NCBI GenBank assembly: GCA_964581425.1
Contig: CAZOOM010000003.1
Coordinates: 1-56,646, forward strand
From: an uncultured bacterium
Lineage (GTDB): Bacteria > Omnitrophota > Omnitrophia > Omnitrophales > Aquincolibacteriaceae
DNA length: 56,646 nucleotides
Direction: 5' to 3'
The stretch's first letter is position 1, and every line of letters starts with the position of its first letter. A program made the position numbers and the translations under genes. This document shows, piece by piece, positions 2,770 through 54,859 of this stretch. The notes beneath the pieces were generated by a model. That model saw nothing but the letters and a program-made list of their open reading frames with translations, was not told the DNA's origin and made no database searches.

Positions 2770-2785
2770 ACTGGTTTCCCTCAAA

Positions 2786-19950: not shown

Positions 19951-19968
19951 TTTTTCTTGCGTCATTGG

Positions 19969-19993
19969 ATTTTAGCAAGGCTTTTGCTAAAAT
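19969..19993 (+). terminator. 10-bp hairpin after the PilZ gene
   Basis: The stem is ATTTTAGCAA-ggctt-TTGCTAAAAT. A second 7-bp hairpin, ATCAACC-aaa-GGTTGAT (19998-20014), abuts the dapF ATG. There is no clear U-tract. Confidence 0.35.
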
Positions 19994-20017
19994 AGGGATC
20001 AACCAAAGGTTGATTGC

Positions 20018-21618: not shown

Positions 21619-21726
21619 CTGATGAAAATGATTCATCCTGAGCTGAGACTTCCTCTTTGCGATATCAGCCGGGAAAATCTTTCAAAGGTTCAGCAAGTTC
21701 TTAAGAATTTAGGGGTGATCTCATGA
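21619..21726 (+). other. dapA: In-frame continuation of dapA past the TGA, encoding the missing conserved DapA C-terminus
   Basis: Thirty-five sense codons follow in the same frame (LMKMIHPELRLPLCDISRENLSKVQQVLKNLGVIS). This matches the usual ...LMG.I..ELRLPL.P.S... DapA tail. It ends at TGA 21724-21726, which overlaps the dapB ATG (ATGA). Confidence 0.75.
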
Positions 21727-22523
21727 CGCGTATCGCGGTTGCAGGGGCTTTGGGACGGATGGGGCGCGCTATTTTGATCGCTGCCTCAAAAGATAAAAAC
21801 TTAAAAATCACGGGAGCGCTTGAAACTTCCTCTTGCCCGGATCTTGGAAAAGATATTGGAGCACTTTTGGGTCTTGGAAATTCAGGCCTCTTGCTTAGCG
21901 CAGATCTTTCAAGCGTTTTAAAAAACTCAGATGTGCTCATTGATTTTACGCATCCTACGGTAACGCTGTCTTTTTTAAAGGCTGCGGTGGAACATCGAAA
22001 AGGTCTTGTGATTGGAACCACTGGACTTAATGCTGAAATGTTATCTGAAATAAAAAAAGCTTCTCAGGTGATTCCTGTAGTTCAATCTCCCAACATGAGT
22101 GTGGGAGTGAATCTGCTTTTTAAGCTTACCGAGCTCACGGGTAAAATCTTGGATGCTTCTTATGATGTTGAAGTTTCTGAAATCCACCACCGCATGAAAA
22201 AAGATTCTCCAAGCGGGACCGCGGTCAAGCTGCTCGAGATTCTTGCCAAGGCTCGGGGCAGAGATTTGGACAAGGATGTAGTTTATGGACGCGAAGGAGA
22301 AGTCGGAGCCAGGTCCGCTGGCCAAATCGGCGTTTCTGCTCTACGGGGCGGGGATGTGGTAGGGGATCATACGGTCTTCTTCTTCGGTGATGGCGAAAGA
22401 ATAGAACTTACCCACAAAGCATCCTCTCGTGATGCCCTTGCATTAGGTGCCCTTAAGGCTGCAAAATATGTTGCCTCGGGTAGCAAAGGCTTTTATACTA
22501 TGCAAGATGTTTTAGGCATTTAA
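21723..22523 (+). CDS. dapB: 4-hydroxy-tetrahydrodipicolinate reductase
   Basis: It has a GAxGRMG Rossmann start and the EIHHRMKKDSPSGTA motif. Confidence 0.9.
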   Translation: MTRIAVAGALGRMGRAILIAASKDKNLKITGALETSSCPDLGKDIGALLGLGNSGLLLSADLSSVLKNSDVLIDFTHPTVTLSFLKAAVEHRKGLVIGTTGLNAEMLSEIKKASQVIPVVQSPNMSVGVNLLFKLTELTGKILDASYDVEVSEIHHRMKKDSPSGTAVKLLEILAKARGRDLDKDVVYGREGEVGARSAGQIGVSALRGGDVVGDHTVFFFGDGERIELTHKASSRDALALGALKAAKYVASGSKGFYTMQDVLGI

Positions 22524-27100: not shown

Positions 27101-28898
27101 AGATTACGATCTTCGCGGAGTCGATGCGCAAATGAAATTCGGCCGCAATACTAAAGTGACGGCTGAATACGCGGAGTCGCATCTTCAGCAGCAAGAGCAA
27201 GCGGTTTCTTATAACGGCGGCATGACGTTTGGAAATGTAAGTATTCTGAAAACGCCTAGAACGGAAGACCGTCCTGCGGGTTATATGTTCCGGGGCGAAA
27301 CAAAACCTGTGAAGCCGCTCGAACTTTCCGGATATTTACAAGGCATTGAACCGGGTTTTTCAGATAATCAAATGATGAGTCAGGAAGGAAATAAAAAATA
27401 CGGGATTTCCACAAAATTTAAAGCCACTGAGCACGCTTATTTACGATACCGTTATGATTACACCGAAGTTTCAGATCTTTTAAGTCCTTTAGATGAGTTT
27501 AATCTTACAGCGAACTACAATAAAAAAAGAAATCACACGATTGATGCGGTTTATGACGGGGAAAAGATCCTTGCTCAAGCCGAGTACGGTAATCAGCACT
27601 CAGAGCTTCCTGAAACAAGAAGCATTTTGCCTTCCTTTTACTCTTCGGTTCCTTATGAAAATGTGATTTCCGGAAAATTGGGATACCACTTAAACGAGAG
27701 GTTGCTTCCTTACTTGAAGGCTCAAAGTACTTTTCAAGGGGATAAACCCAATCATCAACTTGGCGGCGGAGTGCGTTATCAGCTCATGAATGGGGTGTAC
27801 TCGTACATTGAACAGCTCTTTGGAACCGTGGGCGATTCGACCTTGTTCGGTTTTGAGAAATATCATGATAACGGACTTCGTGATTACACGAATCTCCGCA
27901 TGTGGGATTACGGGTCTGGAATCCAAGGCCTGACTTCGACACTTGGAAGTTCTTATTCTCTTTCACCGAAATCCAGAATTTATGCGGAAAGGGAACACTC
28001 GTCTTATCAATCGTCAGACAGCATGGCAGACGTATTTGGAAATCAAACCACACTTACGGATCACTGGGATTTTGAAGGCAAGTTTGAAAGGCGCAATCTC
28101 AAAGGTTCCACTTTCCGACTTCTGGATAATGTGGCGGAAGCAGGGCTCGATAAGCCGAACACGATTAATACAGCGTCCACGGGATTGGTTTACAATAATC
28201 ACAAGGATTTGAAAGCGAAAATCTTCTTGGAAGGTCGCGCAGATCAGGACACTCCCAATTTGCGTCAGTGGGTTTCGCGCAATTACTTAGATTACAAACT
28301 CACCAAGGATTTGAGCTGGTTTTCCAAATTAGATTATGGGAATACTCGTTTTACCACGCTTTCGAGCAATGCCGCTGATTTTGCGGAAATCAATACGGGT
28401 TTTGCTTACCGTCCTTTGGACAATGATCGCTTGAATATCCTGGCGCGCTACTCCTATCTGCGAAACTTGGGCAATGATCTTCAATTTGATCCAGCTTACC
28501 TTGGCGCGCAATTTGATGATAAGGCCCATATTTGGGCGACTGATATTTCTTATGATCTGACGGATCGTTTGAATATCACAGAAAAAATTGCTTATAAAAC
28601 TGCGATTTCTGATAGTTCAGTGACCAGTCAGGCTATTGTGAACAATCTGCTGTGGGCGCATCGTTTCAATTATCACATTACTCGTAAGTGGGATGTGGCT
28701 CTCGAATATCGTATGCTCTTTCAGACGGATGCGACTGAAACCGTGCGTCACGGGCCGCTTATGGAAATTGATCGTGAAATTTTTGACTATATTCGTTTGG
28801 GAGTAGGGTACAATTTCACAGACTTTAATGATGATCTTAGAAAATCCAACAATTATTCAAGTCACGGACCGTTCATGCGCTTAACAGGGAAGTTCTAA
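24195..28898 (+). CDS. 1,567-aa surface/outer-membrane protein: CBM-like, DUF11-like, SdrD-B-like and Ig-like domains followed by a very large beta-barrel
   Basis: The signal peptide ends ...SASAFA/NV. NPSFEEE..W suggests a CBM4_9-like start, and GKVFNDTNKNGKQDNGEKGVPGV an SdrD B-type repeat. A FlgD-Ig-like block (YSYQLKMEDKDG) follows. About 900 aa of Y/F/G-rich strands end with LTGKF and a terminal Phe. Confidence 0.65.
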   Translation: MAMKSESKKSLSERAGLSNSLSPQGNKSKKICSLGRIFLLSFFLFGIWSASAFANVIRNPSFEEEIDGASNWDKTNGADRIDVAAVLTNPFPDGSWALKLDSAASDDFTFEVRDGVKEGDLIVFTARAESNIPVGGGAQGGLMCVEYKKANEFGTDQLVTSTCSDYITTANAPEGGGTAFPRFTVRTTVPPNADRLVFVLKTRGNVGGGSYVVFDDVSADINPAAMSVVSSKTHVKPGEVVTFFMQFQNKVGVAFNGVEILSELPPGFDLVQNSVRLNDQTVGWREGSLIIPVGTVQASERVTAAFQLVATRGVTIGKSYEVILRIRDASGNLSEETHMRLVVEGDPVFDEGTIVGKVFNDTNKNGKQDNGEKGVPGVRLATEEGVVIFTDNNGMYHIPAVKPGRHVVKIDGHSLPDCTQYITEESLLVKTTPGIMNKASFAVFIPDSAMPKEFGDELQVMVTQGLDTSHPVLGVNINSSIIRLGVGKLAHDAVFHFTTNYADFAKQWYLEIRDEMGREIWTGFGVSAPPSEVVWSGQMENGLVIPEGLYSYQLKMEDKDGLQDWSPLYFFRVIPANASKLEEKREIEIPPVGDFNLFKDGKKSIPLVAKPTVRIQGNTKPGYTVMVNTYPVPVDSTGHFSTEIYTSPGERDIRVVATSPAGESIAYQNKVKVKDSTFFMAGLSEGQGGVNFQDGSLDAAGKDESLKKELYTDGRLAYYLKGKLKGKFLIKSHYDTADKRSALFTNLDPDSYYPVYGDNSTREYDADSEQRFYVLVEMDRSFAKWGSFKTAFTDTELATYNRTLSGAKLHFETKSATKYGDPKRGVTAFSAKSEHRADHNEFVSTGGSLYYLRNRLVIEGSEKIRVETRDKIQGMPLSSVDLTEGTDYEIDYEQGRIILNRSINSYAQSDVLLNNDIVSGNEIFLIVDYEYDPGFNSYDPDNRGIRGYTHLGQHIRVGATAVEEKRSNEDYDLRGVDAQMKFGRNTKVTAEYAESHLQQQEQAVSYNGGMTFGNVSILKTPRTEDRPAGYMFRGETKPVKPLELSGYLQGIEPGFSDNQMMSQEGNKKYGISTKFKATEHAYLRYRYDYTEVSDLLSPLDEFNLTANYNKKRNHTIDAVYDGEKILAQAEYGNQHSELPETRSILPSFYSSVPYENVISGKLGYHLNERLLPYLKAQSTFQGDKPNHQLGGGVRYQLMNGVYSYIEQLFGTVGDSTLFGFEKYHDNGLRDYTNLRMWDYGSGIQGLTSTLGSSYSLSPKSRIYAEREHSSYQSSDSMADVFGNQTTLTDHWDFEGKFERRNLKGSTFRLLDNVAEAGLDKPNTINTASTGLVYNNHKDLKAKIFLEGRADQDTPNLRQWVSRNYLDYKLTKDLSWFSKLDYGNTRFTTLSSNAADFAEINTGFAYRPLDNDRLNILARYSYLRNLGNDLQFDPAYLGAQFDDKAHIWATDISYDLTDRLNITEKIAYKTAISDSSVTSQAIVNNLLWAHRFNYHITRKWDVALEYRMLFQTDATETVRHGPLMEIDREIFDYIRLGVGYNFTDFNDDLRKSNNYSSHGPFMRLTGKF

Positions 28899-34709: not shown

Positions 34710-36077
34710 TTGGCGATACGATCAACCGTGACCATCCGACATTTTTACGGGGCCAGCATTTTAGCGCTGGCCCTTTGTCTTTTTGGATGCTCCTCTCAGA
34801 CCTATAAAGGCGATAAACTCAAAGAAGCCATTGTCCAGATTTGCGCCAAAGAAAATGGCATTCAAAATGTGGATGTAAAGGTCGTGGGTACCACGATTGG
34901 TGTTTATCTTCCGCTTCAAAAACTTTTTTCTGCAGATTTTAAAAACGCCCTCCTCGCCGGCAAGGTCAAAGATGTTCAAGCTCTTTTAGAGCCTTCAGCT
35001 GAAGCCATTGAAAAAGTGGAAGACGTTCTCTTCGCTATTTCTCGCGTCCTTCTTAGTACGGAGCGGAAAATTGATTTTTACGAGCTTCAGGCTGTAGATG
35101 TGGAGAAAACAGGGATGTCTCTCATGCTTTTAGGGAATGTCGATGATATCCGCCGTGTTCGAGTTTGGGATATTTCCCGGGATGAATATCGCCGTCGAAT
35201 TATCCACGAACTTAAAGCCAACCGCACTGCGCGGTGGCATCAACCTGTGCGCCAGTTTTTTGATGATCTTAACCGCCTGAGTATCAACGACGTTCGTAAG
35301 GCTTATTTTGGTGAAAACCTTCCGGTAGATGCGCTCAAAGGTCTTTTCTTTTTTCAGGTTCAAGATGGCGCCAATTCTCCTCATCCGCAGTGGGATGTTT
35401 TAGATCTTCGCAGTATTCCAGCGCAGAAAAATCAAGTGCTTGTTTATGCACGCGTGAAATCTCATGGTGGCAATATCAAGGCAAATTATCCAAGCGAACT
35501 TCAGTATCTTTTTCTCCTGGGAGTTAGCGAGGAAAAAGTGGTGATTCTTAGAATTATCCCATTCCAGTATTTAGACGCGAACGGTGCACCGCAAAAAGTG
35601 CCTTTTCCGAAAGAACTTGGAATCCAGGACAATCTGGATAAATGGGATGAGGAGTTCATGGTAAAGGCCGTGGATATGGGGGAGTTTATTGCCGAGCAAA
35701 CGTCGCGTCGGATTCAAGCGATTTTAGCCCAGGATGAGAGAATGCAAAATACATTTCGCGAGGTAAAAGTTGATCTCGCTTATGACAAGGATAAAAAGCC
35801 TGCGATTTATCGTCTAAACATTGCCGCAACGCTCTCGGATTTCAATAATTATCCTTCGCAGTCCATCTTGTTTCATGAAGATATGCTTTATTTTTTAAAC
35901 TTAGTGATCAAAGAATTTAATACGGTAACTCATGCTTATCATTTTGATGCTTTTAGCGGGCTTGAACTTAAGCTTGCGCAAGAGCCAAAGATTTGGTCTC
36001 TGGATAAAAGTGAACTCGAGAGTTTTCGAAAGGGCAAGGTCAAAATCAGGGATCTTTTTGAGTCTTCCAAGACTTAA
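34710..36077 (+). CDS. Lipoprotein of unknown function
   Basis: The lipobox is LCLFGC. The TTG start sits 3 nt after the ftsH stop. GTG 34728 is an alternative start. Confidence 0.6.
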   Translation: MAIRSTVTIRHFYGASILALALCLFGCSSQTYKGDKLKEAIVQICAKENGIQNVDVKVVGTTIGVYLPLQKLFSADFKNALLAGKVKDVQALLEPSAEAIEKVEDVLFAISRVLLSTERKIDFYELQAVDVEKTGMSLMLLGNVDDIRRVRVWDISRDEYRRRIIHELKANRTARWHQPVRQFFDDLNRLSINDVRKAYFGENLPVDALKGLFFFQVQDGANSPHPQWDVLDLRSIPAQKNQVLVYARVKSHGGNIKANYPSELQYLFLLGVSEEKVVILRIIPFQYLDANGAPQKVPFPKELGIQDNLDKWDEEFMVKAVDMGEFIAEQTSRRIQAILAQDERMQNTFREVKVDLAYDKDKKPAIYRLNIAATLSDFNNYPSQSILFHEDMLYFLNLVIKEFNTVTHAYHFDAFSGLELKLAQEPKIWSLDKSELESFRKGKVKIRDLFESSKT

Positions 36078-42620: not shown

Positions 42621-45600
42621 ATGTCGCGGACCAATTCATTGCAAACTGATTTTCTGTTTCCACCTTTTCTAAGAATCACAGCATTTCTCACAGCTTTTAT
42701 TTTTTCCTTCGAACAATTTTTTTATGGCGCTCCGCCGCAAGATCTCTTTGTTCCTGCAGCTTCCTCAGATACGCAGCCTACAGTTTCTTTATCTCAAGCG
42801 AACTCAGTTCGGGCTGTTAATAGCGTACCGACGCCAGTGGGTGCGGTTCCAATCAAAGATGGGACGGAGTTTTTAGCAAAAGACAGTCCTCTTTCTCCTG
42901 TGGAACCGACTCCTTCATCGAAGGTACTCGCGCCAAGACAAGAAATTAATAAGCCGCTTTCATCCGATAGCGAATTAGAGTTTTCTCAGAGGTATTTTTC
43001 AGATCAGCAAAAAACGGTGCGCTTAGCATCGCTTGAAAGTGTGTCAAGCCAGGCTGCTGCAACTCCAATCAAAGTATTGGCGCAGCGCACCGAGACGACT
43101 CCTGCTGGAAAAGTTTCCCGATTTATTGCGAGTGTTGCAACAGAGCCTGGAATTTCAGGTTTTACGGTTTCTTACAGTACCGACCTCATTAATTGGAAGG
43201 TCATTTCAGATTCTCAGTCAGGTTTAGCGATGGTTTGGGCACCTACATCCAGTGGAAAAATAATCTGGTATGACGATGGATCTCTGACCCCCGCGCTTGG
43301 ATCCATGCGCTTTTATCGATTTCTATCCGTGCCATTCGAAGCCAAGCTTGAGTTGCCTCCCAGTACTGTGAAATTAAGCGATGGTTCAATGATCGAATTC
43401 CAGAAGAATGGGGTGAAGGGTATTGCTATTTATGATGCACAAGGAAAACTTTTAGAAATCATTGACCATCCTGTTCCATTGGTAAAGCAGGAACAGGGGA
43501 TGTGGAATGTTTTAGCGAATGGTACTCGGGTCTATTTATCGGATGGAAAACCCTATGTGATTGAAATGACTGACGGAACCCAAATTACAAATTTTGTTTT
43601 GGATTCAAATAACAAATTTCAAGAAGCGCTCATTACCTATCCTGACGGAACCCGGGAGCAGATTTGGAAAGGGGCATTAATCCGCAGAATTCGAAGTGAC
43701 GGATGGGTTGAAGATTTTTTTCCGAATGGAAATAAGGTTCGAGAAATTTATCAAAACACTTTGCGAGAGTTCGCTTATCTTAAAGGGCCTCAGTCAATAG
43801 TGTTGGAGACGATTGTATTTGAAAACGATATTAAGCGCACCTACAACGCTTTAGGGATTCTCAAAGAGATTTCATTTGGTGACGGCCGAAAACTTGTTTA
43901 TGACATCGATTCAAATTTAGACGGAACTTTTGCTACCTTTAATAAGACCAAAAGTGTTCTTCCAGCTACTACGGATCCCAGATGGTCTCAGCACACGGAT
44001 GATTTAATCCAAGGCTATTATGATTTAAAAGGAAATCCAATCACACTTACGTTTCGTGATAAGACCCAGATTCATTTTGCAAACGGCCGTATTAATAGCA
44101 TTACGGATTCGTCTGGAAAAATCCGGTATTTTGAGTACATCTTAAATAAGGATCTAGTCACTGAAATCCATGTCCGCTGGTTGGAGGGGACTTCTCCGCC
44201 TACTGGTACAAACATTCCGATCAAGCCGACTTATTACGTTTATGACAATCAGGGAAAACTGAAGGGGGCTCAAACTGAAGAAGGATTTGTGACATTTGAT
44301 GCTTCTTCATCATCGGAAACAACACTCTTTCGTACAGCTGATGGCTCTTTACTGGAACTCACAGATAAAACTCTTCAGAGGATTTTCCTGAAAGACGGGA
44401 CAAGGGTGAGCGGGCTTGACTGGAATGGTACCCAGTTTACGGATCTTACTCGGATCACTGTGGATGGTTCACAAACCTCCTACAATGCTGAAAAAATCAC
44501 AGACCAAAAGAACGCTTCAGGAAGTATCGTTAATTATGACCTGTCTGAAAAACCAGATTTGGTTACCATGGAGGATGGACGAGTTTATCTTGTTACGAAT
44601 AAAGATCTTGGAAACGCTCAGAGCGAGCGTACTCTCAATCTTCAGACCATGATGTTTGCAGACGGTTCTCATCTTGAATTCAAGGACGGTGTAGTGGTTC
44701 GTTATGTTCAGAAAGTGAAGACTGAAATTACAGCGATAGCTGAGGCTCCGAAAAATCTTCCGGTAGGGCAGGTGTTTGTCCCAAAGCTTCGATTGGTTTC
44801 GGGTGAGCTTAGAAATGTCATTATCGAAGGAGCGGGACGGATTGTGAGCGGTGAGATTTTGATGAATGACGGCACCCAATATCTTTTTGAAAACAGAAAG
44901 ATTGCGCGTGAGATCACAGTCTCTGGCCAGATTCTATATTTTTCAAATACCCCGGCCAATCCGTTGCAGCTTTTTGAAAAAATCTCGGATCCTGATTTGG
45001 GAGACGCAGATTTAAGTGCAGTTTATTCTGCGGCTACTGATTTTTCAAAATTTACTTTGGAATTTAAGAAATCTGACGGATCAAGCCACAAAATCGCCCT
45101 TCAGGATTATTTAGTTCAGAACGGCCATGAGGCAATTTTGAATGCGCTTATGAAAGGGTTTAAACAGGATATCTTAAATGCCTCAAACGGTCAGTCTCGA
45201 TTTTTTGAGACAAACGATGGAAACCTCGCGGTCTCGATCCGTAAAGATGAGCGTTTTGGCGAAGTCCGTGAGCTTACTATGGATCTGAGAGCGAACTTTG
45301 GATTAGCGGGCTTTTATGCTGATTTTGACAATGGAGGACTCAATCTGACTGGTTATGATTTTGTTTCGATCCCTTACCGATCAGCCACTGCGCTTCCAGC
45401 AGGCACTAAAATCAAAGTCGAATTTAAACATGGTTGGAGTACTTTTACAACGGATACGGCTTATTCGGAATCTATTACGACTGACTGGCAGTATCTTCAA
45501 ATTCCGATTGTGAAGGATTATGGTCCTATCCGTCAGATGACGGTTGTCATTCTTGCTCCAAGCGGAGAGGCATTAAAAAACACCATCGAATTGGGTCCTC

Positions 45601-48600
45601 TATCCGGATTTCAAAGACGGGCAACTCAGGATTTTCAGTGGGCTGGTCTTTTTGGAAAAACCGAACTTGATATTCAAACTCTTCTCGTGGCTGAAGCGAA
45701 GAAATTGCCAACCGGTGGGACTTTGATTGAGGAAGAAGTGCTTACCGATTTCAAGGTGGATTCTAAAGGCCGCGTAGTGAGTGGTACTTTAAATCTGAAA
45801 GATGGCAGCACTCAATATTTTCAGGACGGAAAACTGAGTAAATGGGTGTTCCAAAACAGTAAAACCTATATTTATGAAAATGGGCTTGCTAAGTATGTTT
45901 TTTCTCTTATCGACGGCAAACTGACCCAGAGTGCTTTTTATTATGACATGGCTTTTAATGGCACCATCCGTTCGTTTGTTTTGGAAGATCAAGATGTGAG
46001 ACGTGAATTTTCAAACAGTGGGGAAATTCTTAAGCTTACAGCCAAAGGCTACATTGTCGGATTCAGAGATGGGAAAATAGACACGATTGAGGTGCAGAAT
46101 AAAGGCACCTGGAGAAATTTGATATTTGCCGCAGATGGGAATTTATTGAAAGCGGAGTTTGATTATCTGGATGATAAGGTTCTCGTGATGGATCTTGAGG
46201 CGGGGATTTATAAGGTAACAAAACCCGGAGGAATTACGGTGGAATACAAAGGTTCTTTTATTCAAGCAATCAATGTTAATACACCTAACGGTACAACAAA
46301 CACAAGAGTTGAATTTAAGTATACCGTCACATCTGACCAGAAACTTCTGGACGCGATTGCGATCGATACGGATCTTAAAACTGGCCAGACTCGTACCATG
46401 GCTCTTGCGGAGTTTCTGGCTCTTCCGGGCCGCGAGACTGAGCGGAATGAAATTTTGACCAAACCCAAAGTTGATGTCCTGAATTTAGCCAATGCTACAG
46501 GGAATGGGCTTTACAGCACGGGTGCTCTTGATTATCCCGCTCCTCAGTCCGGGGAAGGCAATTCCGTGGCTCATACGCCTAGACAGGAAGTTCAAGCGAC
46601 AGAGACTTTTACGTATCAGGAATCAAGCCCTAAGAGCAGTATTATCGGGATGTATATCAACCATAAGGATTCTAATCGGGGTTGGTATAACCCTTTCTCG
46701 TTTAATACAGGGTCTTCCAGCTCAAGCTATAATTTCCTTTCGATCACCATGCGCCAAGATGCTTCCATGTCATGGAATCAGGATTACCAGGTCAATGTCA
46801 AAGGAACAAATTTCAATCCTCTTTATTCTTTCCGTATTCCCGATTTATCTTCAAATTTTCATACGTTTATGTACTCCATGGAAGACCGGAGCGGAACCGA
46901 AGGTGAAATGACGCTTGAACTTATCCGGGAACACGACGGTTCCGGGAAAGCCGGTACAGTGTATCTGAAGGATGTTTCATACTGGTCAGTCATGAAAGTA
47001 AGCGATCAATTTTGGCAGGATCAGACCACTGTAACAGCGCAGCAGATGAAATTTCTGAAAATTGAAGCGGACCAATTGATGCGTGTAAACGCGAATGTCA
47101 CAAACAAGAAATCGGTTCAATATGACTCGCTTGCTGCCCTGTCCGATATTCCGACGAAACTTGTTTATCATGGGAAGACAGCGAATGACTTAACACTTCA
47201 GTCTTTTCTTAAAGCAGATGGATCCTTTGTGGAACTGACAGAAGATCAGCATGTTAGCAAGATGACCTTGGGCGACGGAACGGTTTACGAGTATCAAACC
47301 CAGGGATCTTCTGCCAAAGGCACCATTCAAGACCCCGCCATGGCAGGAGAAAGTTCAGATCACTTGGATTATCAATATGGAAATATCCGAACAATTAATC
47401 AAACGGACGGCAAAAAAATTTATTTTTCCTATGAAACAGATCCTGAGACAGGAGATGAAATCACAGTGATGAAGGATCCGGATACGCTTGAAGAAAGACG
47501 ATTTAAAGACGGCGAACTTTATGAGGTCCGGTCCGAAAATGGAATTCGCTCACGGTATCAATTTAAAGAAGGAGAACTTTTGGCAGCGGATACAACTTTT
47601 CGTAATCGAGTCATGGACAGTGTGAGTTATGAGTACCGGGATGGCGAAACCTTTTCTACGGACGAACGAGGGACAACCTGGGTCTTTGATAAGGACGGAA
47701 ATCTACTTCGGCATCTGACAAGGGACGGATATTTGTATGTGTATTCCAGTACAAGCCAAGAATTTGATTCTGGAGTAAGTACCAACGGGACAAATCTTAA
47801 TTTTGATCCGACAAAAGAAAATTTGCCCAAAACCCAGGAAGCTTTTGTGTTAGCCGCGAACAATTATAAGCGGGAGTTTTTATTGGGCACGGATTTTCAC
47901 GCAGTAAGTCTCGGAGGATATGAAAGCTCGAACGGTGCGCAGCTTACTTTTGATTTCAAAAAAGGCGGATTGGGAGAAATTAAACTGCCGGAGGGAGATC
48001 ATGCTGTCAATCTCATCTTCGGTGACAACCAGGAAATACAGAGCGGACAAATTCAATTTCGCGATGGAAGTCTAATGAATATCCAAGAAGGAATCCCTGT
48101 GGAGTATCGTACCGCACAAGGAACCTTCTACAAGGCGCCTCTTGACCTAGCACAATTTGACAAGATTGAAGTTTTGGAAAATCCGGATAAAACATTGGGA
48201 GGATGGAAACTTGAAAAAGGAGATAGCTGGTATATTTATGATGCAGATGGGACTCTCAAACAATATGAGAATTCAAGCGGGGAATCTTATCTTTTCACAA
48301 AAGATCCAAATCAGGGAACCGTTACGCAGAGGTTCAGGCAAAGATCTTCTCAAGAAGGTGTTTTTTATCCTCAAGAAATCAAATTTCAATATCTTTCCAA
48401 TAAAATTGTTTTTTCGAATGATGACCAAGTCTTGGCTGAGCAGGGAGGAAATGGTTTTATCGTTTCGGTTTACAAACCCGAGTTTAACCGCTGGGATACC
48501 TTTTCAGGGAATATGGCTGCCGACGGGGATCGGCTGCAATTAAGACTCATTTTAGAAGATGTCCAGCCTGATCAATCGATTGCCTTAGCCACCCGGGATC

Positions 48601-51600
48601 CGAATTTTTCAAAAGCTGAACCCGAATTATTAAGAATACTTCAATCCTTTGGGTCCTCAAAAGCAGAATCGGCAGCTAAAGGCGCTAATCCGGGATCCAC
48701 TTTTACATTATTAGGGCGGCCGGGATTGTCTTCAGGTCAGGCGCGTGAATCAATCGGCGTTGATTCCTGGGCTTCCTATGATGAAAAGTTTACGCCTTTT
48801 ACTGGACAAAAGTTTTTTAAACAGGTTCCTTATCAACTGGTTGCAAATGAAAGTCGCGATGGCTGGGTATTTACTCAATATGCCCGTTTTGTTCAGCTTT
48901 ATTCTTCTCTCAAACTTCAACCAGATCTTCAGATCCTCACGGTTTATAATAGCAAAGATGAGATCGTTTTTTCAAAACGTGTGGATGGAGCAGTTTCATT
49001 TTACGAGCACGGAAAAATTCGGGAAACATTTAATCGCCGCGGGGAGCTAATCAGCGAGCACCACTACCAGTGTCCGTCGACGGGTTGTGCGAGTGCAGAT
49101 GATATGACCCTGATTTGGGTGGAATTGAAGAAAGCACGGCGAGACTTTGAAGATGAAACTCGCAAAATGAATTCTCAAATTGAAAGGGCAGAGCTGGATG
49201 CACTCATGCAGCTTGGTAATACCAAGGAACCTGCGAGGCTTAATATTATTCAAACCATGAATGAAGCGATAGTCGAATATGATAAAGCCCTTTCTTATCT
49301 GGAAAGCGTTAGATTTCAACAGGTCAAAGTCTGCCGCAATTTTCTTTTTTTTAAATCCTGTGATGAAGTCACGGTTGAAGTCCCTGGAGTGAAAGAGCAA
49401 ATCGACCGTTTTCAGTCGGAACGTTCCGGAGTCATTCAGACAGCTCAGACGCAGCTTGCAAATTTAGACGGTGAGATTGCTAAAAAGGAAAAAGAAATTA
49501 AGGATGCTGTAAACGAGCAAAGGCGGGAACTGGAAAAGAAAAAACAGGAGTATGAGAACGATATTCTTCGTTCGGAAATCGAGCCGGTCCTGATCGATTT
49601 TTTTCGCCGTCTGCTCGGGCGTGATCCTTCCTCAGAAGAATTGAATACTTGGATTGAAAAATCAAAAACCAATCAACGGCTTGATATTACAGCTTTGACT
49701 TCAGATTTAAATAAAAAAGCGCAAAGTGAAAACCGCCGTGTAGAAATCAATCAAATTATTGAACGCGTGCGGACTTTACTCGAGACTTATTTGAAGGCAT
49801 CTGATTCCGAGCGGCTTGCCATGCTGGATACTTATCATATCAATCATGATCTTGCCGTGGAATTGGACCAAACCGACAAAAATCTTATTCTTGAATGGCT
49901 GCAAAAAAGAGACCTGCATTTTGGATACTCAGCCTTTTTGTCACTCAAAGAAACTTTGCTGTCTCAAGGAATTTCCGTGGATGTGAAAACCTTGGCGGAA
50001 GAGACTCTTTTTATCGACATCCTTACCGGAGTGATCAATCAATTTACTGAAGGGGAAGTCCTGATATCCCTTTATGCGCTGATGCAATCAGCGAAAATCC
50101 ATGGTGCTGAATATTCGGGGGTGAAATACAGCTATGAAGATCTGCTGTCCCTTTACCGTCAGGCCTGTCCGGATGTCAAAGATCCTTGCAAGAAGCGTGT
50201 GATGGCTCATATAGGCGAGGATCATTTTGTGGTCATCACATCCGTAACGGATCATGAAGTGAAATATTTAGAAACGATTCGCGGCAGATCAGGAGAAATG
50301 GTAACGATCAGCAAAGAGCAATTTCTGAAAGTTTGGGACTTGAAAGGAAGCGGCGGGTATTTGATGGTTAATCAAGCGGATGCCGCTCCAACCAAGATTT
50401 TGGACCGTAAGACAACTTTGAAAATTCGGGGGGCCTGCTGGCCTTTATTTTTTGTCATTCTTTTCTGGACATCGGTGGCGCTTTCGGTGGCCAGTATGAT
50501 TGTTTCGGTTTACAGTCCTAAATGGGGAAAAATTCTAGGATACGCTGCTTTGGTTGCAAGCATTGTTTCCATTGTCGGTAGTGTTGGACAGCTTGCGATT
50601 CAGGGACTTAAAAGCGGACTTTCTTATATCACAAGCCACAGTCTTCTTGAAATGGTCAAAGCCGGAATTTCCCAGATCGGTAAACTCATCATGCTGCCTG
50701 TCAAATTTATCGGGAGGTTATTTCAAAATGGCTTCCAATTTTTAAAGGATGCTTACCGAACAGGACTTGAAAAACTTGGGTCTGGGATTACCCATCTGAG
50801 AGGATATTTGTCAACCGGACAAGGAGCGGTCTTGAAAGATGCCTCAGGGAAAATCCTTCTCAATTCCAAAGGGGAAGCCATCCGCGCATTTACCGGCACT
50901 CAAACAGCGGCGCGTCAGCTTTTATCAGTCGGACTTAATTATGGTGTTTCCTATGGACTCGAAGGAATGGGTTTAGATCCAATGATTGCCCGCTTGAGCG
51001 GGGCCTTTGTGAGCGGCGGTGTGCTGGGAGTGGGAGGTGAAGGCGCGAGTTTTATCAAATCCGGACTGGAAGGTTTTCTGCTTCAGGGAGTCAATGAAAT
51101 GGCGCTTCATCTTGGAGTGCCTCCGCCCATGACTGCCGGACTTTCGTTTTTAACGCAGGGCGCACTGAGCGCCTATTTTGATTCCACGCTGACGTTAAAA
51201 GATGCCTACAAACAACTCCTTCCTGAAACCATGGGCAAGATCACTCAAGGGGGTTTGGAACTCCTGGCCCAGGATTTAAAAATCGATCCCTGGATCACTC
51301 AGCTCATCAGCGTCCCGCTTGGGTTATGGAACCAAAACTTTACCCGAGGCGCTCTCCAGCTTGGATCTCAGTTGAACAGCCAGAGTGTTCTCGATATAGG
51401 GGGAAGGAGTTTGAGGGATATACTTGATGACCGAGGAATCGCGGGGATCGGAGCATCAATTGGGCTGGATGCGATCGGAGCACCTGCCGTGTTGCAGAAC
51501 TTTATTCCCGGTTTAATCGGCCAGTTGATTGGCGATGCGGAAGGAGGGGGTCCCGATCCTGGTGTGGTGGATGATTCGCACTCCAATATTCTCTCAAAAA

Positions 51601-53192
51601 TAGGGAACGGAATTCAAAAATTCGGGAAAGGGTTTACAAAAGTTGTCGGAACGGTGCTGGATTTTGGAAAGAAAGTAGTGAGCGGTGCTGGCTCGATCAC
51701 AGCGGAGGGATTTAAAAAAGGAGTTGGAGCCTTCCGTGCTATTTTCAGCCGCGAGACGCAGGAAAATATTATCAAGGAAGAAACGGGCTTACTGGTAGGG
51801 CATGCAACCAAGATTGGGAATAAATGGGAGTATCAAATTGATGATACTCGAATCAACTATGATTCCCAAACGGGAGTTTTAGAGGAAAATTTTGGGGTGG
51901 GCGGGGTTGCGAGGATAGAAGGTCTTGGCCAGGATGAAGCAGGAAACTTATTTTACGAAAAATTGACGTCTGAAAATGCGATGCCGGGCGGGACTCTGAA
52001 GCAGAGTTATGACAAAGGACATCTTATCAGTTGGACTTTTGACGCCGGAGGTCAATCAACGATTCAATTTTCAGGGAAGGACTCGAATGGATTTGATGCG
52101 AATGGAAATCTGATCAATGGTTCGATCGATTATTCCGAGACAGGAACAAAATATAAAATTTCTGATGGGTACGTCCAGGATGTCGAAATCAACTGGAATG
52201 AAAGTGATTTGGGAACGACGCCTCCGGCTCATATTAAAGAACCGTGGTTTGAAAAATTTGCCTTGTCAAAACCTGCGGATGCAGTCGATTCATGGCTGGA
52301 TAATGCTGCAGATTGGCTCATTGGGCAAACAGAAAATAAGATAGGCTGGATTTTAGTATCACCCGCTGAGATTAATTTTGCGAAGCTTTTAATAAAGGCC
52401 ATAACCACGGATGTGGTGCGTTTTGGTGGTGAAATGCCCGCGATGGCAGACAATTTGAGCGGGATGTGGGCTGCTTGGAAAGCCGGGAAGCCGGTTGACT
52501 TAGCATTTAAATTCTTTGCCTTAAGTGGTAATATTATCACCGAACTTGGCCGTGCGCTTGTGATCGGCAGTATCGCAAAAGGGCTCGCGACGGCAGCTAT
52601 TAAGGGCTCCGCGCCTCTGATTGGCGGACTGCTTGGTCTGAATGAACAGGGATTTGCAAGAATCGCGGCGGAAGATCTCTCAGCCTGGATGTATCGATTA
52701 GCTCATAGCGACGATCCCAAACTCCTTGAAGAGTTAATGCAATTTCTCAAGCGCAATCCATCCATGATGGAGGATTTTCGCAGTTTTATTAAGGATCCAG
52801 ATGAAATTATTAATGCCCTTAAGAAGGGGATTATTAATTTAGAAGATGCAGGCCGGATTCCGTTTAAGAAGGGTGAGGTATTAAAAAGTTTAGTAGATGA
52901 TGCAGTCACTAAATTTGAAAAAACTGGGCGCCAGACCACAGTTTTAGGTAATTACCCTGAGAATATGATCGGTTTAGACAAAAAGGGTATGAATGTTTTA
53001 AACCTTCCTAAGGGGGAATGGTCATGGGGAAAAAATATAGATTGGCTAAATGATGCCATTAATCGAGGTGATGATATATTGCTCGCCACTGAAACACCAA
53101 GCATTCCATCATCATACGCGGATGAGTTGAAATATTTATTTGAAAAGGGGTATGAACAGTATGGTAATTGGCTTATTAAGGTGAAAAAATGA
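42621..53192 (+). CDS. 3,523-aa membrane-anchored YD-repeat giant protein with C39-like domain, TM/glycine-rich segment and C-terminal variable (toxin-like) module
   Basis: It is a single uninterrupted ORF with an N-terminal hydrophobic anchor (aa ~17-36). It has many xDG(T/S)..(Y/F) beta-hairpin repeats, including clear YD repeats (YEYRDGETF..WVFDKDGNLL..DGYLYVY). Other parts are two beta-sandwich-like modules, a coiled coil, a DUF4214-like FFRRLLGRDPSSEELNTWI, a C39-like block (..EDHFVVITSV..), 2 TM helices, a Gly-rich region and a distinct ~110-aa tail. Confidence 0.9.
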   Translation: MSRTNSLQTDFLFPPFLRITAFLTAFIFSFEQFFYGAPPQDLFVPAASSDTQPTVSLSQANSVRAVNSVPTPVGAVPIKDGTEFLAKDSPLSPVEPTPSSKVLAPRQEINKPLSSDSELEFSQRYFSDQQKTVRLASLESVSSQAAATPIKVLAQRTETTPAGKVSRFIASVATEPGISGFTVSYSTDLINWKVISDSQSGLAMVWAPTSSGKIIWYDDGSLTPALGSMRFYRFLSVPFEAKLELPPSTVKLSDGSMIEFQKNGVKGIAIYDAQGKLLEIIDHPVPLVKQEQGMWNVLANGTRVYLSDGKPYVIEMTDGTQITNFVLDSNNKFQEALITYPDGTREQIWKGALIRRIRSDGWVEDFFPNGNKVREIYQNTLREFAYLKGPQSIVLETIVFENDIKRTYNALGILKEISFGDGRKLVYDIDSNLDGTFATFNKTKSVLPATTDPRWSQHTDDLIQGYYDLKGNPITLTFRDKTQIHFANGRINSITDSSGKIRYFEYILNKDLVTEIHVRWLEGTSPPTGTNIPIKPTYYVYDNQGKLKGAQTEEGFVTFDASSSSETTLFRTADGSLLELTDKTLQRIFLKDGTRVSGLDWNGTQFTDLTRITVDGSQTSYNAEKITDQKNASGSIVNYDLSEKPDLVTMEDGRVYLVTNKDLGNAQSERTLNLQTMMFADGSHLEFKDGVVVRYVQKVKTEITAIAEAPKNLPVGQVFVPKLRLVSGELRNVIIEGAGRIVSGEILMNDGTQYLFENRKIAREITVSGQILYFSNTPANPLQLFEKISDPDLGDADLSAVYSAATDFSKFTLEFKKSDGSSHKIALQDYLVQNGHEAILNALMKGFKQDILNASNGQSRFFETNDGNLAVSIRKDERFGEVRELTMDLRANFGLAGFYADFDNGGLNLTGYDFVSIPYRSATALPAGTKIKVEFKHGWSTFTTDTAYSESITTDWQYLQIPIVKDYGPIRQMTVVILAPSGEALKNTIELGPLSGFQRRATQDFQWAGLFGKTELDIQTLLVAEAKKLPTGGTLIEEEVLTDFKVDSKGRVVSGTLNLKDGSTQYFQDGKLSKWVFQNSKTYIYENGLAKYVFSLIDGKLTQSAFYYDMAFNGTIRSFVLEDQDVRREFSNSGEILKLTAKGYIVGFRDGKIDTIEVQNKGTWRNLIFAADGNLLKAEFDYLDDKVLVMDLEAGIYKVTKPGGITVEYKGSFIQAINVNTPNGTTNTRVEFKYTVTSDQKLLDAIAIDTDLKTGQTRTMALAEFLALPGRETERNEILTKPKVDVLNLANATGNGLYSTGALDYPAPQSGEGNSVAHTPRQEVQATETFTYQESSPKSSIIGMYINHKDSNRGWYNPFSFNTGSSSSSYNFLSITMRQDASMSWNQDYQVNVKGTNFNPLYSFRIPDLSSNFHTFMYSMEDRSGTEGEMTLELIREHDGSGKAGTVYLKDVSYWSVMKVSDQFWQDQTTVTAQQMKFLKIEADQLMRVNANVTNKKSVQYDSLAALSDIPTKLVYHGKTANDLTLQSFLKADGSFVELTEDQHVSKMTLGDGTVYEYQTQGSSAKGTIQDPAMAGESSDHLDYQYGNIRTINQTDGKKIYFSYETDPETGDEITVMKDPDTLEERRFKDGELYEVRSENGIRSRYQFKEGELLAADTTFRNRVMDSVSYEYRDGETFSTDERGTTWVFDKDGNLLRHLTRDGYLYVYSSTSQEFDSGVSTNGTNLNFDPTKENLPKTQEAFVLAANNYKREFLLGTDFHAVSLGGYESSNGAQLTFDFKKGGLGEIKLPEGDHAVNLIFGDNQEIQSGQIQFRDGSLMNIQEGIPVEYRTAQGTFYKAPLDLAQFDKIEVLENPDKTLGGWKLEKGDSWYIYDADGTLKQYENSSGESYLFTKDPNQGTVTQRFRQRSSQEGVFYPQEIKFQYLSNKIVFSNDDQVLAEQGGNGFIVSVYKPEFNRWDTFSGNMAADGDRLQLRLILEDVQPDQSIALATRDPNFSKAEPELLRILQSFGSSKAESAAKGANPGSTFTLLGRPGLSSGQARESIGVDSWASYDEKFTPFTGQKFFKQVPYQLVANESRDGWVFTQYARFVQLYSSLKLQPDLQILTVYNSKDEIVFSKRVDGAVSFYEHGKIRETFNRRGELISEHHYQCPSTGCASADDMTLIWVELKKARRDFEDETRKMNSQIERAELDALMQLGNTKEPARLNIIQTMNEAIVEYDKALSYLESVRFQQVKVCRNFLFFKSCDEVTVEVPGVKEQIDRFQSERSGVIQTAQTQLANLDGEIAKKEKEIKDAVNEQRRELEKKKQEYENDILRSEIEPVLIDFFRRLLGRDPSSEELNTWIEKSKTNQRLDITALTSDLNKKAQSENRRVEINQIIERVRTLLETYLKASDSERLAMLDTYHINHDLAVELDQTDKNLILEWLQKRDLHFGYSAFLSLKETLLSQGISVDVKTLAEETLFIDILTGVINQFTEGEVLISLYALMQSAKIHGAEYSGVKYSYEDLLSLYRQACPDVKDPCKKRVMAHIGEDHFVVITSVTDHEVKYLETIRGRSGEMVTISKEQFLKVWDLKGSGGYLMVNQADAAPTKILDRKTTLKIRGACWPLFFVILFWTSVALSVASMIVSVYSPKWGKILGYAALVASIVSIVGSVGQLAIQGLKSGLSYITSHSLLEMVKAGISQIGKLIMLPVKFIGRLFQNGFQFLKDAYRTGLEKLGSGITHLRGYLSTGQGAVLKDASGKILLNSKGEAIRAFTGTQTAARQLLSVGLNYGVSYGLEGMGLDPMIARLSGAFVSGGVLGVGGEGASFIKSGLEGFLLQGVNEMALHLGVPPPMTAGLSFLTQGALSAYFDSTLTLKDAYKQLLPETMGKITQGGLELLAQDLKIDPWITQLISVPLGLWNQNFTRGALQLGSQLNSQSVLDIGGRSLRDILDDRGIAGIGASIGLDAIGAPAVLQNFIPGLIGQLIGDAEGGGPDPGVVDDSHSNILSKIGNGIQKFGKGFTKVVGTVLDFGKKVVSGAGSITAEGFKKGVGAFRAIFSRETQENIIKEETGLLVGHATKIGNKWEYQIDDTRINYDSQTGVLEENFGVGGVARIEGLGQDEAGNLFYEKLTSENAMPGGTLKQSYDKGHLISWTFDAGGQSTIQFSGKDSNGFDANGNLINGSIDYSETGTKYKISDGYVQDVEINWNESDLGTTPPAHIKEPWFEKFALSKPADAVDSWLDNAADWLIGQTENKIGWILVSPAEINFAKLLIKAITTDVVRFGGEMPAMADNLSGMWAAWKAGKPVDLAFKFFALSGNIITELGRALVIGSIAKGLATAAIKGSAPLIGGLLGLNEQGFARIAAEDLSAWMYRLAHSDDPKLLEELMQFLKRNPSMMEDFRSFIKDPDEIINALKKGIINLEDAGRIPFKKGEVLKSLVDDAVTKFEKTGRQTTVLGNYPENMIGLDKKGMNVLNLPKGEWSWGKNIDWLNDAINRGDDILLATETPSIPSSYADELKYLFEKGYEQYGNWLIKVKK

Positions 53193-53611
53193 ACAGCGAT
53201 TATGGAATGGATAAATACGTGGATTTGATCAAGAAATATTTTTTATTCTTAGAGCAAGAATATAAAGGCCACTTTATTAGCGCAGAAAGGAAAAGTTTGA
53301 TTTTCTATATTCTTGAGAAATCTCAAGTTCGATTTGCATTAGATAGAAATCAGCTATTTCTCAGCATTCAACCTTGTGGCGTTGATGAATGGTTTGATTT
53401 GAGTATAGTCATTCTAGCTAAAGATCCCCAATCTAATTTTCGTTATGAATATTTAACTGAGCAAAACTACGAAAAGTGTATCCAAAATCTTTCTACTGCG
53501 CTTGCGAAATATGGAAAAGATCTTCTTGGTGGTGATGCAACAATTCAACAAGCCTATATTGCAGCTGGAAAAGAAATATGGAAAAAAATCAAAGCTAAAG
53601 ACGAAAAATGA
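53189..53611 (+). CDS. Small cytoplasmic protein, candidate cognate immunity protein
   Basis: Its ATG overlaps the giant gene's stop as ATGA. It is 140 aa with no signal peptide. The KKYFLFLEQEY..F N-terminus is a pattern common in immunity proteins. The gene is AT-rich. Confidence 0.6.
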   Translation: MNSDYGMDKYVDLIKKYFLFLEQEYKGHFISAERKSLIFYILEKSQVRFALDRNQLFLSIQPCGVDEWFDLSIVILAKDPQSNFRYEYLTEQNYEKCIQNLSTALAKYGKDLLGGDATIQQAYIAAGKEIWKKIKAKDEK

Positions 53612-53772
53612 AACTCTGGCAAAAAGGGCTTTGGATTGTTTTGATAGGCGGGCTGGTCAATGCCGTTCTCATCCAATCGAATACCGGTGGTTTCTTTCGC
53701 GAACTTGACCGCCTCGCCATCCTGGCTGGTTTTGGCATCACTTTTTTCGGTCTCATCAAGAAAAAGAAATAA
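53608..53772 (+). CDS. 54-aa two-TM peptide (below the ORF track's size cutoff)
   Basis: Its ATG overlaps the previous stop as ATGA. The sequence is MKLWQKGLWIVLIGGLVNAVLIQSNTGGFFRELDRLAILAGFGITFFGLIKKKK, two hydrophobic helices with a KKKK tail. Confidence 0.5.
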   Translation: MKLWQKGLWIVLIGGLVNAVLIQSNTGGFFRELDRLAILAGFGITFFGLIKKKK

Positions 53773-53797
53773 GACCTCAGGAGAGCAAGAGATAAGT

Positions 53798-53865
53798 GAC
53801 AGGCACCGAAGCGGGGACGGTCAGAACTTTTTAAGATTTACAATGAAAAAGAAGCCGTGCCTGTC
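53798..53865. repeat. GACAGGCAC / GTGCCTGTC 9-bp inverted repeat, related to the gpsA hairpin core
   Basis: The arms are at 53798-53806 and 53857-53865. They share the GGGACAGGC/GCCTGTCCC core with 40762-40802. A GTGCCtGGCAC palindrome lies at 53875-53885. Confidence 0.45.
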
Positions 53866-54118
53866 CCTCCTTGAGTGCCTGGCACCTTCTATTTTTGATT
53901 TTAATGAGCGCACAGATATCGAGTTCTTAAAATGGGTAAACCAATTCGATGGCTGGAAGAAAGATGCTCTGCTATTCGTTAAATCCGTGGCTGATTCGAT
54001 TTATTTCTCCATTAATAATCAAAATAAATCACCGGAGGATGCTGCCAAAACAGGAATATGGGAGGCGTTGGATGCTATGTATAAAAAACAGAAATCTCAG
54101 AATGGCAAGGGACCTTAA
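53843..54118 (+). CDS. 91-aa hypothetical protein
   Basis: The first ATG (53843) within the ORF running 53660..54118. I recognised no domain. It is AT-rich. Its 5' end overlaps an inverted-repeat arm, so the start is uncertain. Confidence 0.4.
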   Translation: MKKKPCLSLLECLAPSIFDFNERTDIEFLKWVNQFDGWKKDALLFVKSVADSIYFSINNQNKSPEDAAKTGIWEALDAMYKKQKSQNGKGP

Positions 54119-54120
54119 AA

Positions 54121-54630
54121 GTGCTAAAAAAAACGATTAAGATTATATTAGGGATAATTATTGCCTTACTCTGTACATTATTTGTATTAACATTTCATTA
54201 TGGGAATTTAGCGCACTATCTTTTATTTTTGTCTATTCAAAATAGAAATCCAACCACTTTAACGGTCGATCAAAAAGTAATTTTATTTCATAGATATATA
54301 GAAGCCAAACAACTTGGGAAGGCGCTCAAGTTGGGATCTTATTTTGAGCACGATATTAAGAATCTGAGTAAGTCTGAACGGGTCTACATAGCTGGCAACC
54401 TTGGGTTGATTATGAGGGCTACCGGCGGAGTAAATCACGAACTGGAATTATATGAAGATTTCTTTAAGACGGATTATCCGATCTTATACCATGCATTCAG
54501 AGCGGCTGTTTTTAAATATAACAATGATATGACTACAGCAAGCCACGAGCTAGAAATCGCTCGGAGTATGGCCAGAGAAGAGAATGATTCCATAACTCTT
54601 TCCGTAATCAATGATGTGCGAGTAAGCTAA
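54121..54630 (+). CDS. N-terminally membrane-anchored helical (TPR-like?) protein
   Basis: It has a GTG start and a TM helix (IILGIIIALLCTLFVLTF). The rest is helical. It is very AT-rich. Confidence 0.5.
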   Translation: MLKKTIKIILGIIIALLCTLFVLTFHYGNLAHYLLFLSIQNRNPTTLTVDQKVILFHRYIEAKQLGKALKLGSYFEHDIKNLSKSERVYIAGNLGLIMRATGGVNHELELYEDFFKTDYPILYHAFRAAVFKYNNDMTTASHELEIARSMAREENDSITLSVINDVRVS

Positions 54631-54706: not shown

Positions 54707-54859
54707 GTGTCAAGACGAGGAAGATATCCCAAAGAGTTTAAGCTTGAAGCGGTACGGTTGTTGAATGAAGGGCAGAAACCAATTTCGGAAATAGCTATGG
54801 AATTGGGAGTTAAACGGACGCTCCTTTATCGAAAAAAGGGGTCAAGACTTCAATTGTAA
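54707..54859 (+). pseudogene. IS3-family transposase OrfA N-terminal stub (HTH_Tnp_1), truncated
   Basis: (M)SRRGRYPKEFKLEAVRLLNEGQKPISEIAMELGVKRTLLYR then runs into the left inverted repeat of the adjacent element and stops. There is no OrfB or DDE part anywhere nearby. Confidence 0.7.

Follow-up and report, generated by a model that had tools for sequence, protein, structure and literature searches.

We analyzed a stretch of 56,646 nucleotides from an uncultured bacterium of the Omnitrophota (contig CAZOOM010000003.1 of assembly GCA_964581425.1, positions 1 to 56,646; here called the window), in which one uninterrupted open reading frame (ORF) with an ATG start, at positions 42621 to 53192 of the plus strand, encodes a giant protein of 3,523 amino acids (aa). 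This gene probably specifies a Sec-exported polymorphic toxin that belongs to an Omnitrophota-specific family and is built on a new scaffold. The reading is carried by a comparison across the family, which showed that a collinear body is conserved from aa ~250 to 3175 (from the YD/RHS repeats through the Gly-rich region), that the extreme C terminus swaps between relatives jointly with the gene overlapping its stop codon, and that the family is so far confined to Omnitrophota among named genomes. The protein lacks the features that define canonical Rhs proteins, CdiA, and MARTX or large clostridial toxins, and, taken with its relatives, it has those that define polymorphic toxin systems. The logic of polymorphic toxins is familiar; what is new here is the scaffold, which is widespread in a poorly understood lineage, and the presumed tail/immunity pair of the window is an orphan. 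An initial annotation, made by reading the window alone, had described the giant ORF, and nearly all of the anatomy that it proposed was borne out.

The family and the exchange of its C termini

Searches with the giant protein by itself, whole and as ten overlapping segments, recovered no Pfam or NCBIfam model above cutoff. Peptidase_C39 (E = 0.01; 16.1 bits versus a cutoff of 22), RHS_repeat (E = 0.088), and ILEI (E = 0.0012) were subthreshold Pfam matches; a PDB sequence search gave no match above threshold, and BLAST detected no internal repeats. A word-based search seeded with aa 2150 to 3523 retrieved two relatives, P0001 and P0002, which were aligned with aa 2134 to 3135 of the window protein (alignment A2), and the resulting profile was run against 1.84 billion representatives. 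It recovered 353 cluster representatives at E ≤ 1e-3 and 182 at E ≤ 1e-30. These proteins, labeled "hypothetical" in public records, are nearly all 2,000 to 7,000 aa long, with the matched module ending ~400 to 650 aa before the C terminus. A scan of species-representative genomes yielded nine loci, and every locus with an organism name came from Omnitrophota, the phylum guessed at in the initial annotation. The closest relative, from Candidatus Taenariivivens baikalensis (locus L010), is 58% identical over aa 251 to 2862 and ends at a contig end; the others are collinear with the window protein at 34 to 41% identity from aa ~570-790 to aa ~2,750-3,170. Pfam searches of 13 full-length members detected RHS_repeat in 8 (best, 2.7e-12), Peptidase_C39 in 6, Laminin_G_3 and ILEI in 4 each, FG-GAP_3 in 2, and TcdB_toxin_midN in 1. 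The homologous giant gene of locus L001 carries a single in-frame TAA (1832 to 1834), through which tblastn aligns (window aa 907 to 3135) and which could mark a pseudogene or a sequencing error.

We then compared the C termini of the 128 members that extend 300 aa or more beyond the module. With the final 150 aa set aside, the sequence downstream of the module formed one similarity cluster holding 119 of the 128, whereas the final 150 aa fell into 38 clusters (sizes 74, 11, 3, 3, 2, 2, and 2, plus 31 singletons), with a similar result for the last 250 aa. The downstream genes swap as well: an overlapping ORF lies 3' of the tail in the window, at L012, L013, and L014, and at the loci with hydrolase-type tails, and it changes with the tail. 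A conserved body with a swapping C-terminal cassette is the pattern for which the initial annotation had proposed to look. Recombination is directly visible at L009, since its scaffold matches those of L004, L005, and L006 at 53 to 63% identity, as closely as the three match one another, but its tail is unrelated to theirs, which are themselves 65% identical.

The content of the tails supports, for the relatives, the toxin logic proposed earlier. Pfam searches of 38 representative tails recovered Ntox10 (6e-25), RES (3e-5), and Tle3 (1.6e-4), along with lipase-like and other domains (Abhydrolase_8, DUF676, LCAT, PGAP1, and Peptidase_C92). At L013, an 85-aa Imm27 gene overlaps the 3' end of the gene for the Ntox10-bearing member P0004 (4,983 aa), and Ntox10 and Imm27 are listed as a cognate toxin/immunity pair (Zhang et al. 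2012; PMC3482391). In the dominant tail class, Ser-Gly and His motifs are conserved, by which the class might be called hydrolase-like; it splits into two subclasses, each with its own related TPR-like downstream ORF carrying a signal peptide; by analogy, this resembles the arrangement of a lipase effector with a periplasmic immunity protein.

At the window locus, the breakpoint is marked by P0143 (803 aa), the only protein that matches the C-terminal 388 aa of the giant protein. The two are 46% identical over aa 2864 to 3409, a segment whose last part (aa 3176 to 3409) includes a hydrophobic Gly/Ala-rich stretch, and the alignment stops abruptly at its end, ALKKGIINLED. Beyond this point, the last 114 aa of the window protein are unrelated to the last 153 aa of P0143, and so are the overlapping ORFs that follow, of 140 aa in the window (here ORF140) and 121 aa (a DUF7957 protein) after P0143, so that the anticipated swap of tail and downstream ORF is seen in this pair. 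P0143 looks like an orphan cassette, being a 5'-truncated copy (its upstream extension is blocked by a stop codon) that adjoins a Y1 transposase. The composition agrees with the initial description of a distinct ~110-aa tail followed by an overlapping small ORF: the G+C content is 0.380 in the tail and 0.329 in ORF140 (positions 53189 to 53611), versus 0.44 ± 0.03 in the giant gene, which ranks the pair among the lowest 0.2% of windows across the 56.6 kb and suggests that it was acquired by recombination. ORF140 starts in an ATGA overlap with the stop codon of the giant gene, behind a Shine-Dalgarno-like AAGGTG, and by our own base-composition estimate, an ORF of 140 codons would arise by chance in 33% G+C DNA with a probability of ~2e-5. 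It has no signal peptide and is a candidate immunity protein for the tail (aa 3410 to 3523), which is accordingly a candidate toxin acting in the cytoplasm. Word-based homologue searches with aa 3136 to 3523 and with a 127-aa tail gave nothing, and metagenome scans with an alignment of the pre-toxin region (A6) and with the tail gave no relative. We assign no activity to the tail because its AlphaFold2 model is poor (predicted local distance difference test score [pLDDT], 51.5) and its Foldseek matches are not significant (best E = 0.08). The window holds no repeated DNA linking the tail junction to downstream sequence and no orphan copy of the cassette, and inspection by eye showed no double-glycine cleavage site to be conserved ahead of the tail; P0143 lacks the GG of aa ~3337.

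A nontoxic giant adhesin or envelope protein would account for the same gene if ordinary sequence divergence or antigenic variation explained its C-terminal differences and ORF140 were unrelated or spurious. The tail and ORF140 match nothing, repeats and binding-type domains make up most of the protein, and the gene is located among housekeeping genes, all of which would suit such a protein; against it stand the abrupt rather than gradual loss of identity at aa 3409, the bona fide toxin domains and the cognate immunity gene in relatives, the covariation of tails with downstream ORFs, and the improbability of ORF140 by chance, together with its start-stop overlap and ribosome-binding-like site. 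We regard this alternative as decidedly improbable.

N terminus, repeat body, and central module

Hydropathy analysis of the giant protein delineated three segments, aa 11 to 30, 2604 to 2631, and 2637 to 2663. The first coincides with the N-terminal hydrophobic segment claimed in the initial annotation; it follows a basic n-region, and the N termini of homologues are signal-peptide-like in the same way, with a motif conserved across the family (...AFLT..F[ST][FW]xQ...A). The repeats that follow were described initially as degenerate hairpins becoming canonical YD repeats. Degenerate repeats are indeed enriched, with 13 copies of DG[ST]x2-8[YFW] in aa 41 to 2133 versus 1.1 ± 1.0 in shuffled sequences and 3 copies of the strict YD core versus 0.19 expected, but "canonical" overstates the case for this protein because RHS_repeat reaches only the E value given above and no NCBIfam YD or Rhs model matches. 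Collinearity of this region with relatives starts at aa ~250 (L010) or ~570-790 (others). One of two proposed beta-sandwich-like modules was recovered as an ILEI/PANDER-like domain at aa 1956 to 2032, which is subthreshold in this protein and significant in relatives (2.5e-14) and is possibly a binding module. The scaffold is thus not wholly unplaceable, as had been supposed, since RHS_repeat in the N-terminal half of relatives relates that half to RHS/YD proteins at the family level; a clean placement among Rhs, CdiA, or MARTX proteins was nevertheless not obtained, as the initial annotation had it. The absences listed there also held: neither DPxGL (searched as DPxG[LWF]) nor VENN occurs anywhere in the giant protein, Pfam scans gave no TPS, PAAR, LXG, or Rhs-core match and no FHA repeats, and no secretion-system genes (including TpsB/CdiB-type, VgrG, PAAR, and TcA/TcB genes) were detected among the window ORFs scanned. 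Pfam and NCBIfam likewise gave no match to a Peptidase_C80 cysteine protease domain or to RTX-type or CROP repeats in this protein.

These results bear on whether the protein is a canonical Rhs or Tc-type (TcB/TcC-like) cocoon, in which a YD shell would hold the toxin until an Rhs-core aspartyl protease released it. The RHS_repeat matches in 8 of the 13 relatives, the TcdB_toxin_midN match in one, and the enrichment of YD-type motifs in the window protein point that way. However, the window protein has neither DPxGL nor any match to an Rhs-core or YD-repeat model, no PAAR, VgrG, or TcA partner is encoded among the scanned ORFs, and ~1,400 aa, including two transmembrane (TM) helices, separate the repeats from the C terminus, far more than an Rhs cocoon holds. 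A cocoon of this kind is therefore hardly credible here.

Between the repeats and the tail lies the central module. It begins with a helical region (aa 2160 to 2313) for which a coiled coil had been proposed; its composition (38% E/K/R/Q, with few Pro and Gly) and weak PDB matches of the coiled-coil type are consistent with that proposal. Within it, the loop VKxC..FL..K.C..T.EVPGV (aa ~2236 to 2256; positions 49326 to 49388) is invariant in the family and has two conserved Cys; the C39-like domain described below has another such pair (aa 2516 and 2523). Both pairs may form disulfides, which would be in keeping with a location outside the cytoplasm. The DUF4214-like motif noted initially is upheld by its RxxLGRDP signature, invariant across the family, and the Pfam DUF4214 model itself is reached by only 2 of 26 module-containing members, at 5e-4.

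The next block, initially called a releasing peptidase, has a C39 fold. An AlphaFold2 model of aa 2310 to 2600 from a 26-row alignment (pLDDT, 94.3; predicted template modeling score, 0.91) was matched by Foldseek to the C39 peptidase domain of PCAT1 (E = 3e-5; probability, 1.0), to ComA, LahT, and the Vibrio C39-like domain 3b79 (probability, 1.0), and also to a CdiA-CT cysteine-peptidase toxin. The family profile aligned with the PCAT1 sequence (E = 3e-7), with the invariant His2535 at the catalytic His of PCAT1, and 20 of the 26 module-containing sequences matched Peptidase_C39 (PF03412; best, 1.6e-10). C39 enzymes have their nucleophilic Cys at the N terminus of the central helix. The family has the near-invariant LHFGxSA there, with no Cys in any aligned member; Gly2435, residue 2436, and Ser2437 are the candidates for the Cys position. 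We therefore consider the domain to be either a Ser/His variant or a noncatalytic C39-like domain, so that the fold stands and the releasing activity is unproven. In L010, an in-frame insertion of ~60 aa (~10425 to 10604) lies in the C39-like domain before the strand with the invariant His.

The two TM helices and the Gly-rich stretch proposed after this domain are both present, at aa 2604 to 2631 and 2637 to 2663 and at aa 2664 to 3030 (16.6% Gly), respectively, and a role in membrane entry may be suggested for them by inference only. "Glycine zipper" was rejected as a description of aa 2664 to 3030, in which GxxxG occurs 7 times versus 10 ± 2.6 in shuffled sequences.

Known systems, possible mode of action, and significance

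Several of the above results weigh against a polymorphic toxin. In the window's own subfamily, the cassette breakpoint is defined by a single relative, P0143; the tail and ORF140 had no homologue, family, or fold match in the searches made, and toxicity and immunity at this locus are thus argued by analogy with relatives. To obtain the tail clusters, representatives at 50% identity were grouped by single linkage, and some "tails" may be truncated gene calls. Around 58% of the members share the dominant tail class, so the polymorphism is real but uneven, and since that class had no Pfam match and no significant PDB sequence match by profile, its hydrolase nature is unproven. The missing nucleophile leaves release by the C39-like domain unproven, and no secretion or outer membrane partner of the giant protein is known.

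The closest analogues are the Sec-dependent RHS toxins typified by WapA/WapI of Bacillus subtilis (the "T2SS" [type II secretion system] class of RHS toxins; PMC3482391), which likewise combine a signal peptide, a long YD/RHS body, a variable C-terminal toxin, and an immunity gene directly downstream with no dedicated secretion system encoded nearby. Unlike WapA, the Omnitrophota family has no Rhs core or DPxGL autoprotease, carries a family-specific module of ~1,000 aa between repeats and toxin, and has so far been found only in Omnitrophota, as proteins of 2 to 7 thousand aa (kAA). With CdiA it shares a giant, filament-like exported protein, an apparently bipartite C terminus (a short toxin behind a subfamily-specific segment), an overlapping immunity gene, and an orphan-like copy (P0143), but not the TPS domain, FHA repeats, VENN motif, or CdiB partner; one CdiA-CT (PDB code 8ssk) is itself a C39-like peptidase, whereas in the giant family this fold is part of the conserved body and not the toxin. 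The C39 domains of the bacteriocin exporters PCAT, ComA, and LahT and the noncatalytic C39-like domain of HlyB have the same fold and the same invariant position of the catalytic His, and in PCAT transporters this domain also directly precedes TM helices. The giant proteins differ from PCAT, ComA, and LahT in having LHFGxSA in place of the Cys, two rather than six TM helices, and neither a nucleotide-binding domain nor an ATP-binding-cassette transporter; in contrast to PCAT-type exporters, their C39 fold lies deep inside an exported protein. Large clostridial and MARTX toxins are comparable by analogy only, as single chains with repeats, an internal protease fold, a hydrophobic translocation-type region, and one or more effectors, but they are set apart by their Peptidase_C80 cysteine protease domain, RTX or CROP repeats, type I secretion system, and different domain order.

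From these comparisons we can sketch a speculative mode of action. The repeat region, with the lectin-like domains of relatives, would bind the target cell, and the TM hairpin and Gly-rich region might insert in a membrane and carry the C terminus across. The C39-like domain could free the C terminus by way of a Ser/His variant site or, alternatively, serve as a noncatalytic docking element, as in HlyB, or as a chaperone; aa 3176 to 3409 might function like the entry domain of a bipartite CdiA-CT region. A more far-reaching version, which we consider rather unlikely, would make the central module a delivery device independent of secretion systems and hence a new trafficking class, by which ultrasmall Omnitrophota push swappable effectors across the envelopes of neighbors or prey, with the C39 fold as a Ser/His processing enzyme or intramolecular chaperone and the tail and ORF140 as a new pair of toxin and immunity folds.

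The "Archaeovorins" and Dockerin-type giants (10.1101/2023.11.21.568195; 10.64898/2026.06.07.730766) come from the same phylum and are also reported to have C39 domains, TM segments, and RHS-like beta structures. These proteins, of at least 10 to 30 kAA, have been proposed to serve in attacks on other cells; they differ from the present family in being 3 to 40 times longer and multienzyme, in having SecA-like domains, and in not being described as polymorphic or as having toxin/immunity cassettes. Neither study describes the 2- to 7-kAA family or offers a toxin/immunity reading, and the word "polymorphic" is missing from both. Alternatively, the present family might be directed not at kin but at prey or host cells of other species, as an effector of predation or epibiosis, with the downstream gene protecting the producer only. 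The predatory or host-dependent habits reported for Omnitrophota and the ties of their far larger giant proteins to prey attack (10.1101/2023.11.21.568195), the many lipase-like and thus membrane-attacking tails, and the lectin-like domains of relatives (Laminin_G_3, ILEI, and FG-GAP) speak for this; however, the polymorphism of tail and immunity gene, the orphan-like cassette, and the Ntox10/Imm27 pair are classic marks of intraspecific competition (PMC3482391). We judge this alternative somewhat unlikely; it overlaps with the polymorphic-toxin reading because the mechanism is identical and the target alone differs.

In a phylum thought to be predatory or epibiotic, at least 353 sequence clusters of 2- to 7-kAA proteins annotated as "hypothetical" thus become concrete candidates for attack on, or competition with, other cells. 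We know of no genetic tools for Omnitrophota. The conserved module may represent a new membrane translocation device, and within it a C39 fold lacking the Cys occurs in a new context; the tails that have no assignment, the window's included, are a potential source of new toxin and immunity folds. Classical exchange of toxin/immunity cassettes thereby takes its place, in the large-protein biology of the phylum, beside the multienzyme giants described so far.

Feature coordinates and genomic neighborhood

Table 1. Features of the giant gene and its surroundings (window positions unless a locus is named)
Feature	Position	Strand	Remarks
Signal-peptide-like N terminus	42621..42731	+	aa 1-37, hydrophobic core aa 11-30; same motif in relatives
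Beta-rich region with degenerate DG[ST]..aromatic / YD-type repeats	43368..49019	+	aa ~250-2133
ILEI/PANDER-like domain	48486..48716	+	aa 1956-2032; subthreshold here, significant in relatives (2.5e-14)
Charged helical region	49098..49559	+	aa 2160-2313; interrupted by conserved loop C..FxxKxC..EVPGV
DUF4214-like motif	49575..49700	+	aa 2319-2360; RxxLGRDP (aa 2329-2336) invariant in family
C39-peptidase fold	49893..50390	+	aa 2425-2590; His2535 invariant; LHFGxSA (Gly2435, Ser2437) at usual Cys site
Two adjacent TM helices	50430..50609	+	aa 2604-2631 and 2637-2663; conserved in relatives
Gly/Leu-rich conserved region	50610..51710	+	aa 2664-3030; 16.6% Gly
Beta-rich YD-like segment	51711..52145	+	aa 3031-3175; last part shared with wider family (L009 to aa 3174, P0002 to aa 3135)
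Subfamily-specific pre-toxin region	52146..52847	+	aa 3176-3409; shared only by P0143 (46-48% identity)
Variable tail, candidate toxin domain	52848..53192	+	aa 3410-3523 plus stop; predicted alpha/beta (low confidence), G+C 0.38
Candidate cytoplasmic immunity ORF (ORF140)	53189..53611	+	140 aa; ATGA stop overlap, AAGGTG upstream, G+C 0.33
Two small ORFs	53660..54630	+	152 aa; 169 aa with hydrophobic N terminus, G+C 0.361
IS200-like Y1 transposase gene	54834..55895	+	gene 54901-55887, fused DnaA_C-type helix-turn-helix; bracketed by 31-nt inverted repeats
NTF2/SnoaL-like 151-aa ORF	56102..56557	+	G+C 0.366; weak Imm-NTF2 match (E = 0.011); 3' of transposase
Y1 transposases in other loci	L009 ~15275-15883; L012 538-1194 (-); L013 20639-21250; L001 ~13383-13532		

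The genes neighboring the giant gene are housekeeping genes, among them those for arginine and lysine biosynthesis, uvrA, ftsH, hrcA, dnaJ, gpsA, and the genes for HU and a peroxiredoxin. The 152-aa and 169-aa ORFs downstream of ORF140 had no family match, and their membership in the cassette is uncertain; the 169-aa ORF was considered as a displaced TPR-type immunity gene and rejected (hhalign probability, 0.3%).

The Y1 element beyond them is bracketed by inverted repeats at 54834 to 54864 and 55865 to 55895 that are 97% complementary, an arrangement reminiscent, by analogy, of REP/RAYT elements. At five loci, a Y1 transposase gene lies ~0.1 to 5 kb from the 3' end of the family gene or directly upstream of the orphan-like copy. 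The Y1 copies are only ~28 to 37% identical in most pairs, so they do not represent one spreading insertion sequence, and Y1 transposases may take part in cassette turnover. The NTF2/SnoaL-like ORF at the end of the window is a possible orphan immunity gene.

At L013, positions 19949 to 21794 hold, in order, the Imm27 gene, a 130-aa ORF, the Y1 transposase gene, a 56-aa ORF, and a DUF7957 gene, an array that looks like spare immunity genes or cassette remnants. Its DUF7957 protein is 35% identical to that encoded after the P0143 tail (L012, 3687 to 4052), and the flanks of L012 and L013 have a Peptidase_S15/response-regulator fusion and a methyltransferase in common, in different order. Elsewhere in the window, ORFs without a Pfam match at E ≤ 1e-3 lie at 16560 to 19250 (minus strand; 896 aa), 22616 to 24184 (522 aa), and 34710 to 36077 (455 aa), and a second large ORF (24195 to 28898; 1,567 aa), in which domains resembling SdrD_B and Glucodextran_B occur, probably encodes another surface protein.

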